Shown here piece after piece: positions 1 through 8,544 of a stretch of 42,742 bases of DNA (its first letter is position 1; every line of letters begins with the position of its first letter). This DNA is from Candidatus Moanibacter sp. (GTDB lineage Bacteria > Verrucomicrobiota > Verrucomicrobiia > Opitutales > UBA2987): assembly GCA_965215885.1 (NCBI GenBank), contig CBDCEW010000074.1:1-42742 (forward strand), read 5' to 3'. The position numbers were made by a program, and so were the translations under genes. The notes under the pieces were generated by a model. It made no database searches. It was not told where the DNA came from and was given only the letters and a program-made list of their open reading frames with translations.

Positions 1-128
1 CCGGCGAGGGCCGCGCGGCATTTGTCCAAAGCGCGCGCTGCAATGACAAAGCCCCCCAGTGTCTCATGAGGGCTGCGAGGGTATTCTACCGCCAGATCTT
101 TGGCGAGGATCTTTACATTTTCGTTCAT
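1..128 (-). CDS. DUF5069-like protein, 5' part (runs off window)
   Basis: Minus-strand ATG at 128 translates to MNENVKILAKDLAVEYPRSPHETLGGFVIAARALDKCRAALA; the PRSP..LGG...AR.LDKCRA pattern resembles DUF5069 proteins (from recall). Confidence 0.7.
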   Translation of the reverse strand, partial: MNENVKILAKDLAVEYPRSPHETLGGFVIAARALDKCRAALA

Positions 129-293
129 GAATGAGGTGTGTATACGCATGAGAGTTCAATGTCCACTCTCACAACCCGAAAGTGCGAACTTTGCAGACCT
201 CTCTACCGCCGAGGTCTCCCGAGTGACGAAGACGGGCAACCCACGGCGGCTCCGCCGACCCACTGTTCCTTGCGGTGATAATTCACTCCTGAA

Positions 294-357
294 GTAGGAG
301 AGGCTTTAAGCCTCGATCCGTACCACCATGATCATCGCGAGGTAAACTCGCTCCTAC
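294..357. repeat. GTAG-type REP pair (REPIN-like)
   Basis: gtaggagaggctttaagcctcgat ... atcgcgaggtaaactcgctcctac: two inverted GTAGGAG-headed imperfect palindromes. Confidence 0.7.
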
Positions 358-487
358 ATCCCTCTCGGGTATTCGAGCTGCATCTTCGAGTCCGCCCAAG
401 GTTTAAAATGGACGAAGTCTTATACATTTTTAAGAAATGTTAAATAATAATCTATTATCAAATAGTGTTTAACCCGGGAGATCGCGG

Positions 488-515
488 TTGACAGTAAGGA
501 AGTGGGAATTAACCT
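488..515 (+). promoter_or_regulatory. Putative sigma70 promoter for the metG leader
   Basis: TTGACA (488-493), 16-nt spacer, TAACCT (510-515), with AT-rich sequence upstream. Confidence 0.55.
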
Positions 516-548
516 GTATGTTTCTATAGACAGGAAAGAACCTGAGAA

Positions 549-626
549 ATGAATCTGTATCACAGCAGTTTGATGATGCGACTTCGCCGGTTAATTGTCG
601 GTGAAGGCATGCGAATGCGCAGGTAA
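549..626 (+). CDS. Met-rich leader peptide MNLYHSSLMMRLRRLIVGEGMRMRR
   Basis: 25-codon ORF with 5 ATG codons (positions 1, 9, 10, 21, 23), purine-rich AGGAAAG upstream, located between the promoter and terminator ahead of metG. Confidence 0.7.
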   Translation: MNLYHSSLMMRLRRLIVGEGMRMRR

Positions 627-655
627 AAGAAGCCCGAATCGGTAGACAATTTTCC

Positions 656-693
656 GGCCCAAGAGAACAAATGCTCTTGGGCCTTTTTATTTT
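656..693 (+). terminator. Intrinsic terminator (attenuator) in the metG leader
   Basis: Perfect 10-bp stem ggcccaagag/ctcttgggcc with an 8-nt loop, followed by tttttatttt, 30 nt before the metG ATG. Confidence 0.85.
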
Positions 694-723
694 CCGAAAT
701 CCAACATCCACTCAGATTTTCGC

Positions 724-2175
724 ATGAAGAAACAGATCTATATCACCACAACAGTTCCCTACGTAAACGCGAAGCCCCACATCGGGTTCGCTCTGGAGCT
801 TCTAGAGGCAGATGCCCTGAATCGCTACTACAAGCAATGCGGATACGCATCTTTCCTCCAGACAGGCACCGACGACAATGCTCTTAAGAACGTCAAGGCT
901 GCGAAGGAGGAGGGCGTGACACCCTCGGAATGGGTCGACCGCAACGCGGCTGCCTTCCGACAGTTAGCGGACATCCTCTCGATCGAATACGACTCCTTCA
1001 TTCGAACTACGGAAGATCGGCACAAGAGAGCGGTGCGGTCGTTCTGGAATCGGCTCTCTCCGGATGATCTGTACAAAAAGCCGTACCGAGGCTTATATTG
1101 TATCGGTTGCGAGGACTTTTATACGGAGAAAGACCTCGAGGATGAACTCTGCCCGGAACACGGGACGCCCGTTACCACGGTTGAAGAGGAGAATTACTTC
1201 TTTCGGCTGTCGCGCTACGAAAAGGAACTTCACACGCTTATCAGCCAGGATCGAATCCGAATTTTACCACATAAAAGAAAGAAGGAAGTTCTCACGTTCA
1301 TTGAAAGCGGACTGCATGATTTCAGTGTATCCCGTTTAGCATCTCGTGCGGATGGCTGGGGGATCCCCGTTCCCGGAGATTCACGTCAGGTCGTATACGT
1401 ATGGGTCGATGCACTCATCAACTACCTGTCAGGGATCGGTTTTGGCAACGGCGATGACTGGAAGAAGCTCTGGAACGAGAAGACGAGGAAGATACACGTC
1501 CTGGGGAAGAACGTTTGGAAATTTCACGCTATATACTGGCCGGCAATGCTTCTCTCCGCACGTATCAGTCTTCCGGATGAGCTTCTGATTCACGGATTTC
1601 TTACCGTAGAAGGAAAGAAAATAGGCAAGAGTCTCGGCAACGCAATTGATCCTATTGCCAGTTTAAATGTACTTGGTTTAGATGCTGTCCGATATTTCCT
1701 GTTGAAAGGCATACCTCCATCTGGCGACAGTGACTTTGCGAAAGCACGTGTAATTCAACTATATAACGCCGACCTCGCAAACGGCCTCGGAAACCTCGTC
1801 AGCAGATTGGCCCGCCTCGCTGAGAAGAGTAGTTACACTCCTCCAAACACTCAAAGGAAGGAGGTATTAGATTTACCTCAACCTTATCATGAAGCCTTTA
1901 TTCGCTTTGGGATCGATGAGGCAGCAGAGGCAGCCATCGATGAGGTGAGAGCTCTCAATCGCGAGGTGGATCGAGTCGAGCCGTGGAAACTATTGAAGTC
2001 CGGCCAGTTTCAAATTCTTCACGGTTTTCTCAGGGAGTGGTTCGAGCGCATTGTAATAGTGACGGAAGAGCTGAAACCGATAATCCCGCAGACCGGCCAA
2101 TTCGTAAATCAGAAACTATCAGACCCATCGTCTCTGGACGGTATCCGTCTCTTTCCGCGGAAGTTTTTAGCGTGA
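724..2175 (+). CDS. metG: Methionine--tRNA ligase, short form without the C-terminal tRNA-binding appendix
   Basis: PYVNAKPHIG (HIGH region), TGTDD, CxxC...CPEH zinc knuckle, WGIPVP, YVWVDAL, FHAIYWPA, KIGKSLGN (KMSKS variant), LANGLGNLVSR. Confidence 0.95.
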   Translation: MKKQIYITTTVPYVNAKPHIGFALELLEADALNRYYKQCGYASFLQTGTDDNALKNVKAAKEEGVTPSEWVDRNAAAFRQLADILSIEYDSFIRTTEDRHKRAVRSFWNRLSPDDLYKKPYRGLYCIGCEDFYTEKDLEDELCPEHGTPVTTVEEENYFFRLSRYEKELHTLISQDRIRILPHKRKKEVLTFIESGLHDFSVSRLASRADGWGIPVPGDSRQVVYVWVDALINYLSGIGFGNGDDWKKLWNEKTRKIHVLGKNVWKFHAIYWPAMLLSARISLPDELLIHGFLTVEGKKIGKSLGNAIDPIASLNVLGLDAVRYFLLKGIPPSGDSDFAKARVIQLYNADLANGLGNLVSRLARLAEKSSYTPPNTQRKEVLDLPQPYHEAFIRFGIDEAAEAAIDEVRALNREVDRVEPWKLLKSGQFQILHGFLREWFERIVIVTEELKPIIPQTGQFVNQKLSDPSSLDGIRLFPRKFLA

Positions 2176-2187
2176 TCCCGCTGAGCG

Positions 2188-3795
2188 CATACGCGTAAAC
2201 CTTATTTTCGCAACTTAGTCAGATTCAAAGACTTGCGAGGTATTTTGCGGCGGAGTATGAGGGTGTCTCTATCCTCGAGGTTCCACTCCATTTGTTCGCC
2301 CTTTTCTATTTGCTTCGTTTCGACCACAGCGGTGAGGAAATTCGCAGTTGAGCGAGTGCATTTTGGCCGGGTTATCTTCTCTACTTTTACCGTCTACCCC
2401 ATTTTTTTTCACTTTGGCAGCATTTTATACTGTACATTCGTTCATATATAGGATTTATCCTTCGGATGCAAAGTATAAAAAAAGCTGATTGTATCCGTCA
2501 AACCTTCCGTAAGTTGAACCTCACAGCCCTCGCTAAACAGAGTGGTTTTAGAGAGAGGAAATCGCGCAAGATCTCCCCTCTGAACTTTGTTTTGGCTTTG
2601 CTGGCGATGGCTTCTAAGGGGGCCTTGTCCCTTGGCAAAGAAGCCGAGCTTATTGGATTCTTAGCCAACCGCACCATTTCCAGACAAGCGGTCCAAAAGT
2701 GCGCCAAAAAAGCCACCGCTTTTATGACCTTAGTGCTCCTGAGGCTTTTAGAACTTAAAGCTTATGGGCCTGTGGGCAGAGCTGTTCCAAATTGCATGAG
2801 GAGCTTTGAACGGGTTCTCATTGCCGACAGCACTTCGATTGGCTTGCCTAAGGTCCCTGGCCCCCTTCTTCCCCGGAGCGTCCAATCAGACAGGCTCCAA
2901 ACAGGCTCAACTGAAGATTCAGGCCTATTACGATCTGCGCAATGAATCCTTCGTTGACTTCAGCCTCAGTAGCTTCCGAAAAAACGATCAGGCTGCTTCC
3001 AAAGACATTCTCGCTCTCGCTCAACCCAACGACTTGATCCTGCGCGACTTAGGCTATTTTGTCCTCGATGTCTTTAAGCAACTCGATCAGCGCGGCTGCT
3101 TCTTTGTGAGTCGTTTGAAAACCGGCACTTGCCTTTTAGCCAACGAAGGCGATGAAGAGCTCGATCTACGCAAACTTTTACGTGGCCAAAAGCTTCTCGA
3201 TATGCCCGTTCGGGTGGGTAAAAAAGCCAAGCTTCCGGTTCGTCTGATCGCCGTCAAACTCCCTCAGAAGGTGGCCCATAAACGCCGCCGCGAGCATAGA
3301 CAAAACCGCGACAATAGACTTCGATATACCAGCCGCACCAGCTTCCTTCTCGGTTTCCAAATCTTTATTACCAACCTCCATCAGAAAGACTTTAGCCCTA
3401 AGCAGATTCTGAGCTTTTACGGGCTTCGCTGGCGCATCGAAATTTTCTTTAAGGCCTTTAAGCAACATCTTAATCTCGGTCAGGTCAAAGAGACTACTCC
3501 CTACCAGATTGAGCTTCTTATCTACGCCCGTCCTCATCCTCATTACCCACTTACTCAACTTCGTCTATGGTCCCCTTAGACACTATTCGAATACCAGTTT
3601 GTCCTCTCCTCTGAGTATCCTTAAATTCTCCTACTGGTTTGGCTTCTTTGCTCCCTACTTCTTCATCCTCTCTCACCTTCCCAAAGATCAGATCATCCCC
3701 CGATGGCTCAAACAAATCCCCAAACACTGCACCTATGAAAAGCGTTCTCGTCTTGATTTCCTCTCTTGTTTCTTCTCCTTAGGTTAACGCAAATG
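2188..3795 (+). mobile_element. IS4-family insertion sequence (1608 bp)
   Basis: Imperfect terminal IRs catacgcgtaaacct / aggttaacgcaaatg; 9-bp direct repeat CGCTGAGCG at 2179-2187 and 3796-3804. Confidence 0.9.
2466..3787 (+). pseudogene. IS4-family transposase with two +1 frameshifts (~2852, ~3528)
   Basis: IADSTSI, RDLGYF and Y..RWRIEIFFK (YREK) motifs are spread over ORFs 2466-2945, 2806-3579 and 3509-3787. Confidence 0.85.
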
Positions 3796-3968
3796 CGCTG
3801 AGCGGGACGCCTTAATTCGATCTTTCGAGAAAGGGGTAAAATAGTCACTCAAAACAGTAAGAAAGGTGATAGGATTTCCGGGCTTGTATTTTTTCAAACT
3901 CCCAACATTCTTGCCGCCTTCAATCGATCCAGATTTCATATCTTGATCTGGAGGAATTCAGTGAAATC

Positions 3969-5693
3969 ATGAGAGACCACCTTATTCAACCGCATGGAGA
4001 ATCCCTGGTAGACTTGATCGTCTCGCCGGAGGAAACCGAAGAACTAAGAGCGAGTTCCAAGAACTGGCCATCCTGGGATTTGACAGCCCGCCAGCTCTGC
4101 GACCTTGAGCTGCTTCTGAACGGTGGATTCTCACCCCTTAAAGGTTTCATGTGCCGCTCCGACTACGAGTCCGTCGTGTCATCGATGCACCTGTCGGATG
4201 AAACACTTTGGCCGATCCCAGTCGTCCTCGATCTGCCGGATGCATTTGCTAAGGAGCTCTCTGCAAACGAAACCATCGCCCTGCGTGACCAGGAAGGGGT
4301 AATGCTGGCCGCACTGCGCATTGAAGATATCTGGAAGCCGGATCGTATCGTCGAAGCGGCCGAAGTCTACCAAACGACCGATCCTACACATCCAGGTGTA
4401 CAATATCTCACTCGCGAGACAAACCCATGTTACGTCGGAGGAACGGTCCTGGGAATTCAGTTGCCTGCACACTACGACTCAGGATCACACCGCTTCACGC
4501 CTGCCAGACTGCGGCGTGAATTCGGTCGCCTGGGATGGCGCAAAATCATCGCTTTTCAGACACGAAATCCAATGCACCGGGCGCATTTCGAACTGACCAT
4601 GCGCGCGATTCGAGAGCATCAAGCCAATCTCCTGATTCATCCTGTCGTCGGATTAACGAAACCGGGCGACGTGGACCATTACACGAGAGTTCGCTGTTAT
4701 GAGGCGCTCCTCCCACACTACCCTCTCAACTCCGTGAAGCTGGCCCTGCTTCCCCTATCGATGCGGCTGGCTGGACCCCGTTCCGCTGTCTGGCACGCAT
4801 TAATCCGGAAGAATTACGGCTGTACTCATCTCATCGTCGGGCGCGACCATGCGGGGCCGGGAAAGGATGCCAAAGGCAACGACTTTTACGGTCCTTACGA
4901 CGCGCAGGAACTCCTTCAGCAACTGGAACCTGAAACCGAAATCGGGATGGTCCCCTTTTCCCAGCTCAACTATGTGGAAGAAAGGAATGCCTACCTTTCA
5001 ACGAATGAAATTGAGCCGGAAATGCGCACTCTGAGCATTTCTGGAACAGAGCTGCGAATCCGCCTCTCCGAAGGCAGGGACCTGCCAAAATGGTTCACTT
5101 TCCCTGAGGTGGCCACGGAATTGCGTCGCAGCTATCCGCCCCGCTACCAACAGGGCTTCACCGTATTCTTTACCGGGCTCTCCGGTTCGGGAAAGTCCAC
5201 CATCGCCAATGTCCTCATGAGTAAGCTGCTGGAAATCGGAGGAAGACCGGTTACCCTGCTCGACGGTGATATTGTTCGAAAGAATCTATCCTCTGAGCTC
5301 GGCTTCTCCCGTGAACACCGAGATTTGAATATCCGTCGCATCGGATTCGTCGCGAATGAAATCACTAAAAACGGAGGAATTGCTATCTGTGCGCCCATCG
5401 CCCCCTACGATTCCGTTCGCGAAGACGTCTGTTCACTGATTAAAAAGCATGGCGGATTCATTCTTGTCCACAACTCTACTCCATTAGACGTTTGCGAATC
5501 CCGTGACCGAAAGGGCCTTTACGCAAAAGCTCGCGCAGGAATAATCAAAGAGTTTACGGGGATCTCAGATCCCTACGAGGAACCAGCCAACGCCGACCTC
5601 AGAATCGATACCTCCAACCTCACACCGGAGGAGGCCTGCCAAGCGGTTCTCCTCCACCTCGAACGCGAAGGCTACGTTTCCGGAAAGCCGTAA
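3969..5693 (+). CDS. sat: Bifunctional sulfate adenylyltransferase / adenylylsulfate kinase (Sat-CysC)
   Basis: FQTRNPMHRAH and VGRDHAG (ATP sulfurylase); C-terminal GLSGSGKST, LLDGD, FTGISDPYE (APS kinase). Confidence 0.96.
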   Translation: MRDHLIQPHGESLVDLIVSPEETEELRASSKNWPSWDLTARQLCDLELLLNGGFSPLKGFMCRSDYESVVSSMHLSDETLWPIPVVLDLPDAFAKELSANETIALRDQEGVMLAALRIEDIWKPDRIVEAAEVYQTTDPTHPGVQYLTRETNPCYVGGTVLGIQLPAHYDSGSHRFTPARLRREFGRLGWRKIIAFQTRNPMHRAHFELTMRAIREHQANLLIHPVVGLTKPGDVDHYTRVRCYEALLPHYPLNSVKLALLPLSMRLAGPRSAVWHALIRKNYGCTHLIVGRDHAGPGKDAKGNDFYGPYDAQELLQQLEPETEIGMVPFSQLNYVEERNAYLSTNEIEPEMRTLSISGTELRIRLSEGRDLPKWFTFPEVATELRRSYPPRYQQGFTVFFTGLSGSGKSTIANVLMSKLLEIGGRPVTLLDGDIVRKNLSSELGFSREHRDLNIRRIGFVANEITKNGGIAICAPIAPYDSVREDVCSLIKKHGGFILVHNSTPLDVCESRDRKGLYAKARAGIIKEFTGISDPYEEPANADLRIDTSNLTPEEACQAVLLHLEREGYVSGKP

Positions 5694-7536: not shown

Positions 7537-8544
7537 CTAAACTGTGCGCCTTTCCAGAAAGCCTACCTTTCGGTAGACCTTACGCAACATTGCATCGGCC
7601 CGCATCTGCGCGGCTTCCGCTCCATCGGTCAACACAGAGGTAAGCGCATCCTTATCCTGCACAAGGGCGTTGTATCTATTTTGAATGGGCTCCAGCAGAG
7701 CAACTACCGATTCCGCCACCGCACTTTTGAATTCGGCATAACCCACCCCAGCGAAGCTTGATTCGAGTTGATCAATTGAGCGTCCGGTCACGCCACTCAT
7801 GATAGAGAGCAGATTCGTTATTCCCGGCTTCCCCTCATCCGCCCTGATCTCCCTGTCACTATCTGTGACTGAGCTCATGATTTTCTTGCGAATGGCACCA
7901 GGCGGATCCTGCAGGAAAATTGTCGCGTTCCGATTTTCGTCAGATTTTGACATTTTTTTGGTAGGCTCCTGAAGCGACATAACCCTTCCCGCCACTTTCG
8001 GAATATAAGGCTCGGGCAGAGTAAAAGTATCAGAATAAGTGCGATTGAACTTCTCGGCGATGTCTCGCGTAAGCTCCATATGCTGCTTTTGATCGCCGCC
8101 AACAGGTACCACATCAGCGTTATAGAGCAGTATGTCGGCCGCCATAAGAACAGGGTAGTAAAGAAGCCCCGAACCGACTGTTGCACCAATACGAGCCGAA
8201 CGGTCTCGAAACTGCGTCATCCGCTGCAATTGCCCGACCGGCGTGAGGCAACCGAGGATCCAGGCCAATTCCGTATGCCCGATCACATGAGATTGGAGAA
8301 ATATTCGGGATTTCTCTGGGTCGAGCCCACAGGCAATATAACCGGCTACACATTCCAAAGCGCCTCTTCTCAATTCCGACGGCACAGTGCTTACCGTAAT
8401 GGCATGGAAATCGACTATGGGGAAGAAGCACTCGTAATCATCCAGCATCTCCGTCCAGTGCTTGATCGCACCGAGGTAATTACCCAGGTGCAGCTGACCA
8501 GAAGGTTGGACGGCGGTAAGTATGACAGGCTTTTTCCGGCTCAT
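7537..8544 (-). CDS. trpS: Tryptophan--tRNA ligase
   Basis: QPSGQLHLGNYLGA, YPVLMAADILLY, VPVGGDQKQH, KMSKS. Confidence 0.97.
   Translation of the reverse strand: MSRKKPVILTAVQPSGQLHLGNYLGAIKHWTEMLDDYECFFPIVDFHAITVSTVPSELRRGALECVAGYIACGLDPEKSRIFLQSHVIGHTELAWILGCLTPVGQLQRMTQFRDRSARIGATVGSGLLYYPVLMAADILLYNADVVPVGGDQKQHMELTRDIAEKFNRTYSDTFTLPEPYIPKVAGRVMSLQEPTKKMSKSDENRNATIFLQDPPGAIRKKIMSSVTDSDREIRADEGKPGITNLLSIMSGVTGRSIDQLESSFAGVGYAEFKSAVAESVVALLEPIQNRYNALVQDKDALTSVLTDGAEAAQMRADAMLRKVYRKVGFLERRTV

Follow-up and report, generated by a model that had tools for sequence, protein, structure and literature searches.

The E. coli pheM-pheST attenuator belongs with trpL and hisL to a class of leaders in which a short ORF, carrying control codons for the cognate amino acid, precedes RNA segments able to form a protector, an antiterminator and a terminator hairpin. 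The classical model of these systems, from translation of the leader through stalling of the ribosome to induction of the downstream gene, is well established. Vecchione and Sello have reportedly described ribosome-mediated attenuation of an auxiliary TrpRS of Streptomyces.

Related arrangements have been reported for other synthetases and amino-acid genes. PMC1262725 presents a candidate attenuator upstream of trpS2 and reports that the methionine operons of Actinobacteria are not preceded by a conserved RNA structure; PMC9437257 describes an indolmycin-resistant TrpRS1 in Streptomyces, and gives Ser, Ile and Trp as amino acids with known resistant second synthetases. In Rhodobacterales, cysS is preceded by a uORF with Cys codons (motif uORFC-8-2, PMC8632094), and leaderless polycysteine attenuators of mycobacteria, acting on access to the ribosome-binding site, are the subject of 10.1101/834739. 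As to methionine, a table in PMC3771891 includes a Met T-box before B. cereus metS, and PMC11109978 proposes an fMet-tRNA-dependent uORF for fthC; metG is not mentioned in the available parts of PMC4833913, PMC13285730 and PMC7373986. Our literature search, which covered main texts outside subscription journals, found neither a Met-codon attenuator nor a metG leader peptide.

The DNA analysed here, referred to as the window, is a stretch of 42,742 nucleotides of Candidatus Moanibacter sp. (contig CBDCEW010000074.1), in which positions 488-723, upstream of a metG gene on the forward strand, had been proposed to be a methionine-sensing leader-peptide attenuator. The promoter-like TTGACA-N16-TAACCT of this original prediction was found as described, and is a probable sigma70-type promoter (-35 box at 488-493, -10 box at 510-515, spacer of 16 nt), though a consensus promoter scan made no call at 488-515, TAACCT having 3/6 consensus matches; TTGAC is similarly placed in 6 of the 7 members of clade W, the MetRS clade that includes the window, with sufficient upstream sequence, which supports the promoter. 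A weak Shine-Dalgarno-like AGGA (532-535; -4.3 kcal/mol in a duplex with a generic anti-SD motif) presumably serves the leader ORF, or uORF, of 25 codons at 549-626, which was present in the ORF list and has equivalents in homologous loci. Its translation is MNLYHSSLMMRLRRLIVGEGMRMRR; the four internal AUG codons expected there stand at codons 9, 10, 21 and 23, and the same uORF holds six Arg codons and two +X+ motifs (RLR and RMR).

The predicted RNA structures are likewise present. The protector hairpin 1:2 (582-606) pairs 582-590 with 598-606 over 9 bp, and is supported by folding and by equivalent hairpins in homologs. It overlaps the 5' strand of the antiterminator 2:3 (586-658), in which 586-590 pairs with 654-658 and 593-599 with 645-651 around a 2x2 U loop (-21.7 kcal/mol). 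The intrinsic terminator 3:4 (656-693; -18.7 kcal/mol) was called as such and combines a perfect 10-bp stem (656-665/674-683) with the U tract TTTTTATTTT at 684-693, after which metG follows. The antiterminator does reach into the terminator base, as had been anticipated, but claims merely 3 nt of it (656-658), against 4-7 nt in the other clade W leaders. When the 300 nt preceding metG were shuffled 2000 times with dinucleotides preserved, 3.1% of the shuffles held a uORF with MM inside it and 0.15% one with at least four internal Met; the energy of the antiterminator duplex was equalled by 7/1000 base shuffles (p 0.007). A contig from another public run, which may be the run of the source sample, covers 435-2187 with one difference. 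RNA run X1 (share 0.08), the only one located, gave no contig over the leader.

The idea that the Met codons of the uORF act as the sensor was supported for one of the two groups only. The AUG AUG pair of Met9 and Met10 (573-578) is conserved and lies 7 nt before the antiterminator, and would be the only one placed to control; the Met-Arg-Met stretch (MRM, 609-617) lies past segment 2, is not conserved and probably does not contain control codons. A strong Rfam match to a T-box or SAM element would have spoken against the proposal. No Rfam family reached threshold over window positions 1-1500, where four weak unrelated matches all scored below gathering; T-box (RF00230) gave no match at E <= 10 in the same region, a covariance-model search of the leader found no SAM riboswitch family at gathering score, and the leader matched none of the Rfam leader families.

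The gene behind the leader, metG (724-2175, + strand, 483 aa; NCBIfam TIGR00398 above cut-off), is the second MetRS gene of the genome. The housekeeping metG lies on contig C98, its product is 35% identical to the window MetRS, and no such uORF-terminator unit was found upstream of it. A scan of the whole genome for units of a residue doublet in a uORF followed by a terminator returned three MM matches, namely the window locus twice and one weak unrelated hit. Contig C60, considered as a second copy of the gene, was ruled out, being the window locus with an IS insertion: this allele carries an IS4-type insertion of ~1.3 kb (C60 596-1914), ~40 nt upstream of the -35 box, around which an 11-bp target (438-448, no strand assigned) is duplicated, so that window positions 1-448 and 438-1033 match C60 about 1.3 kb apart. 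C60 overlaps C74, and strain variation may thus add to the 5.5% contamination figure of the assembly.

Several features surround the locus. An IS4-family element (2176-3808, + strand), which is context and lies outside the switch, begins at the first base after the metG stop; the assembly contains it in about 30 full-length copies that are nearly identical, and its transposase is split over two frames (2466-2945 and 2806-3579). On the other side, the start of a DUF5069 gene (3-149, - strand) is divergent from the metG leader, and a dispersed, palindromic, REP-like repeat of ~85 nt (294-380) has 79-90% matches on at least 10 other contigs. The AT-rich nested inverted repeat at 438-473, just upstream of the promoter, is a possible repressor site, and we take it to be loosely like the Fur box consensus; positions 420-464 match contig C93 at 91%. 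A trpS gene (7537-8544, - strand) and a gene for a bifunctional ATP sulfurylase/APS kinase (3969-5693, + strand) both lie within 8 kb.

The distribution of the auxiliary metG is patchy, and this suggests that the gene spread horizontally. Among 60 relatives, a close copy was found only in one genome of the same family (G006, 51% identical), and 300 further draws from the phylum gave three matches at E <= 1e-100, 38-40% identical and outside the clade; the phylum search centred on G065 returned small genomes, taken to be Patescibacteria, with a tally of 67/301, and G810 is counted in this tally only. Close relatives are present in Gemmatimonadota, Myxococcota and Actinomycetota, as well as on rhizobial and Streptomycetaceae replicons. 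A second MetRS match was present in 11/11 leader-bearing genomes checked; in the four checked genomes with a related MetRS and no leader, whose assemblies are incomplete, there was one MetRS match in three and two in G066. Inspection by eye of the downstream ORFs of the homologs found no shared neighbour.

To compare leaders, a tree was built from 241 fetched MetRS proteins and the C98 copy, two duplicate loci being removed. Met-rich uORFs group in two of its clades, clade W (9 loci including the window, support 1.0) and its sister, clade A (58 loci, support 0.97). After leaving out nine loci with <200 nt upstream, 7 W, 56 A and 169 other loci remained; the latter include CPR-type loci and were read over 300 nt only, so that leaders ahead of an operon would escape. 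uORFs containing an internal MM occur in 45/63 upstream regions of W and A, window included (W 4/7, A 41/56), versus 2/169 elsewhere, in agreement with the original prediction that homologous metG leaders would carry Met-rich uORFs; when MxM is admitted beside MM, the counts are 4/7, 49/56 and 8/169. The reverse strand gave 1/63, shuffles a mean of 0.6/63 with a maximum of 2, and no other residue doublet in the upstream uORFs of W and A came close to the MM enrichment. Since the clades were drawn after the leaders had been seen and the loci are kin rather than independent, the MM counts describe rather than test, and p-values for this conservation overstate it.

The three MM-negative leaders of clade W have a single Met at the equivalent place, and the truncated L121 reads MMM. 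The G006 uORF (...HRMMSPRALIVAG...) matches that of the window (...LMMRLRRLIVGEG...); Streptomyces and Embleya uORFs read ...MMPR..., and those of Rhizobium ...TMMM(L/P)RS. The Met leaders thus range over Streptomyces, rhizobia, Gemmatimonadota and a genome of the same family as the window's. The leader pattern had 4 matches in 22 genomes of one actinobacterial class, all upstream of an auxiliary metG. Met-cluster uORFs were also seen upstream of metG in L169 and L023, outside W and A and near Saccharibacteria proteins in the tree, possibly as an independent occurrence.

The arrangement of protector, antiterminator and terminator, recognised at the outset as that of an attenuator, is conserved together with its spacing. 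In clade W, 8/8 leaders have a protector, a stem followed by a U tract, and an antiterminator (shuffle p <= 0.01). The protectors of clade A vary in sequence and usually begin directly after the last Met. The 5' strand of the antiterminator starts one ribosome's width past the last control Met: it begins 0-15 nt past it in 44/57 leaders, 4-11 nt in 37/57, and at exactly 9 nt, the mode, in 20/57. These offsets were assigned automatically, with 13/57 outliers in which mostly a later hairpin had been picked; the window had been wrongly anchored on MRM, and its hand value, 7 nt from MM, equals that of L082 / G006. The letters of the helix vary with complementarity kept (GCCGG/CCGGC in the window, GGGCCC/GGGCCC in L082, GGCGG/CCGCC in rhizobia). 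Cognate antiterminator duplexes averaged -28.8 kcal/mol against -19.9 for non-cognate pairs, the cognate duplex ranking best in merely 4/8 rows; in the unguided MAFFT alignment A3, in which the helices are out of register and the counted columns were shifted, pair counting gave 35% paired, below the shuffles, and 80% at a +2 slide, and was uninformative.

U tracts in clade A are often weak, at least 4 T in 8 nt being present in 24 of all 57 automatic picks. A TAnnnT hexamer ends 5-7 nt before the uORF start in 31/49 clade A uORFs, compared with 1-3 at control distances, and for this reason many of them look leaderless. Some clade A leaders may be under translational control, as a second hairpin close to the ribosome-binding site of metG suggests; loci with leaderless-looking Met uORFs or such a hairpin include L111, L112 and L203-L208.

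Seven clade A loci are without a Met cluster, and two of these bear on the signal that is sensed. L134 has a T-box at 1179-1432 (98 bits, above gathering), and L180 one at 1155-1436 (81.5 bits, below gathering, E 3e-18), both with AUG at the specifier position as judged by eye. The Rfam scan of 13 homologous loci yielded only one T-box and one tRNA at gathering. In L134 and L180 a T-box thus stands in place of the Met leader, apparently two mechanisms for one signal in one gene clade, and the AUG specifiers make the signal point to tRNA-Met charging. L242 and L243, clade A loci lacking the Met cluster, are in genomes with one MetRS match.

Taken together, these data make it very probable that the window holds a classical ribosome-mediated attenuator, one that sets the expression of a back-up MetRS according to the supply of charged elongator Met-tRNA. 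Translation of the uORF, stalling, kinetic antitermination and induction of metG would proceed as follows. When Met-tRNA is plentiful, the ribosome would pass Met9-Met10 and strip segment 2, or the protector (582-606) would form first; the terminator would be completed and transcription would end near 690. A shortage of Met-tRNA would make the ribosome pause while Met9 or Met10 is the A-site codon; it would then cover the RNA to about 582-585 and remove the outer half of the protector, so that 586-599 would be left free for 645-658; with 656-658 held in the antiterminator, the terminator base would close too late and metG would be transcribed. Charging could fall because Met is scarce or because the housekeeping MetRS fails or is inhibited, and the leader could not distinguish the two.

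Folding with the ribosome masked is in part consistent with this scheme. If Met10 occupies the A site and the ribosome shields the RNA up to 585, the protector falls from -18.1 to -8.1 kcal/mol and the antiterminator forms; the terminator base is then paired at 0.60, versus 0.94-1.0 in the other seven states tested. A ribosome at Arg11 abolishes the antiterminator base in the model, and one at MRM (609-617) leaves the terminator base paired (1.00). The dip at Met10 depends on the footprint: it is absent at +11, falls at Met9 with +15, and dips to 0.6-0.7 occur at Arg24/25 as well. Equilibrium folding mostly favours the full terminator, and a full-transcript scan of the window kept the terminator at 0.78-1.0 at every ribosome position. 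The same type of scan gave a Met-specific dip in 0/7 homologs, the stems being mis-set in two. In transcripts ending at 660-680 the antiterminator is preferred by the model with no ribosome present at all, and the switch must therefore depend on kinetics. The weak points of the leader are its 3-nt overlap and its weak Shine-Dalgarno sequence, and the need of initiation itself for Met-tRNA could blunt the signal.

The ribosome might also stall near MM with Met-tRNA in good supply, through arrest by the nascent peptide, with or without the help of a ligand, or under general translation stress. The recurrence of MMPR in 28/57 leaders would fit such an arrest, and so would the three clade W leaders with a single control Met, which alone would be a weak sensor of starvation; on the other hand, there is no conservation of the residues ahead of the Met cluster, the gene under control is that of the cognate synthetase, and the replacement by T-boxes with AUG specifiers points to tRNA-Met charging, which leaves this explanation quite unlikely. 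Granted that the family is real, the copy in the window genome might have decayed, being constitutive and no longer switching; we judge this very unlikely. Its short overlap, the dominance of the terminator at equilibrium and the IS elements on both sides would agree with decay, but nothing is missing from the four segments or their spacing, and the strands of the helix still match although their letters are not those of L082. In run X7, moreover, a contig over 542-667 differs at just 2/126 letters, and contigs lying mostly in metG differ at 34/~535 and 48/~620, with the caution that the strains may differ between contigs. Finally, +X+ is the motif of antibiotic-sensing arrest leaders, and the original prediction had offered Arg supply or drugs as the alternative signal, with stalling at the Arg codons or at RLR/RMR giving read-through; this is highly improbable, since, notwithstanding the Arg content of the window uORF, the frequent Arg after the control Met and a mild enrichment of Arg doublets (34/63 vs 60/169), such doublets are equally common on the reverse strand (33/63), +X+ is found in the 5 codons behind the control Met in just 11/57 leaders (anywhere in 17/57), the frequent Pro-Arg results from the protector's CCCCG strand and disappears where other letters keep the pairing, and a ribosome that has reached Arg11 or gone beyond it covers 586 and what follows, removing the antiterminator base.

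If the leader is a Met-tRNA attenuator, the function of the enzyme deserves consideration. The auxiliary MetRS has one CxxC..CxxH knuckle, no C-terminal domain, and the motifs HIGF, DDNA and KIGKS. The HIGH motif ends in Phe in 8/9 W proteins and at least 31/58 A proteins, versus 0/101 in the outgroup, and no W or A protein retains DEHG; the same changes occur in many CPR-type members of the larger clade, sole-copy ones included, and by themselves are therefore no proof of resistance. Enzymes of the MetRS2 type have two knuckles, and the window enzyme, with its one, does not fit this type. Its nearest solved structures are 4dlp, 2csx and 1a8h, which we take to be MetRS1-type. The two types are defined in PMC7916415, MetRS2 being the inhibitor-resistant one. 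A divergent second copy beside the housekeeping enzyme, as in resistant auxiliary synthetases, was found in 11/11 genomes. According to PMC10485003, an altered HIGH motif gives mupirocin hyper-resistance in IleRS2; given this and the resistant second synthetases for Ser, Ile and Trp, leader and gene may form a mobile, inducible rescue cassette against a natural antagonist of methionyl-tRNA synthesis, a suggestion that we make tentatively and regard as rather unlikely. Were it correct, soil and sediment bacteria from at least five phyla would use the Met leader to sense inhibition of MetRS, and the leader could serve directly as a biosensor for finding the antagonist compound.

Apart from this suggestion, methionine would join the amino acids read by leader-peptide attenuation. 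This could not be taken for granted, since the initiator tRNA with which the leader begins and the elongator tRNA to be sensed are charged by one and the same synthetase; the same design before a second metG in culturable Streptomyces and Rhizobium makes this initiator/elongator question testable. The leader would moreover mark a widespread clade of auxiliary MetRS as a stress-induced back-up, and could be used as a simple reporter for MetRS inhibition.

As a kind of switch, the window leader would be classical, and its new part would be the specificity for Met, for which our literature search returned no earlier description. The fthC system is alike in its proposed methionine-dependent uORF control, but it would act through the speed of initiation on a folate enzyme, while the window has internal Met codons and a terminator before metG. 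The uORFC-8-2 and polycysteine leaders resemble the window leader in having a cognate-codon uORF before a synthetase or amino-acid gene, clade A being often leaderless-looking too; they read Cys instead of Met, and the mycobacterial ones gate the ribosome-binding site where the window has an intrinsic terminator. The B. cereus metS T-box shares the inferred signal (uncharged tRNA-Met) and the target, and Met T-boxes replace the leader in L134 and L180; unlike the window leader, which has no T-box, it binds the tRNA directly without a ribosome. The auxiliary TrpRS of Streptomyces is also a low-identity second synthetase under a leader with cognate codons; that system reads Trp, with its natural inhibitor and resistance known, whereas for the window enzyme both are conjectural. 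With pheM-pheST, trpL and hisL, the window has in common the cognate leader ORF and the three hairpins, and with pheST the control of an aminoacyl-tRNA synthetase; it differs in that the amino acid is Met, the synthetase is a second, dispensable one, and the uORF runs past segment 2.
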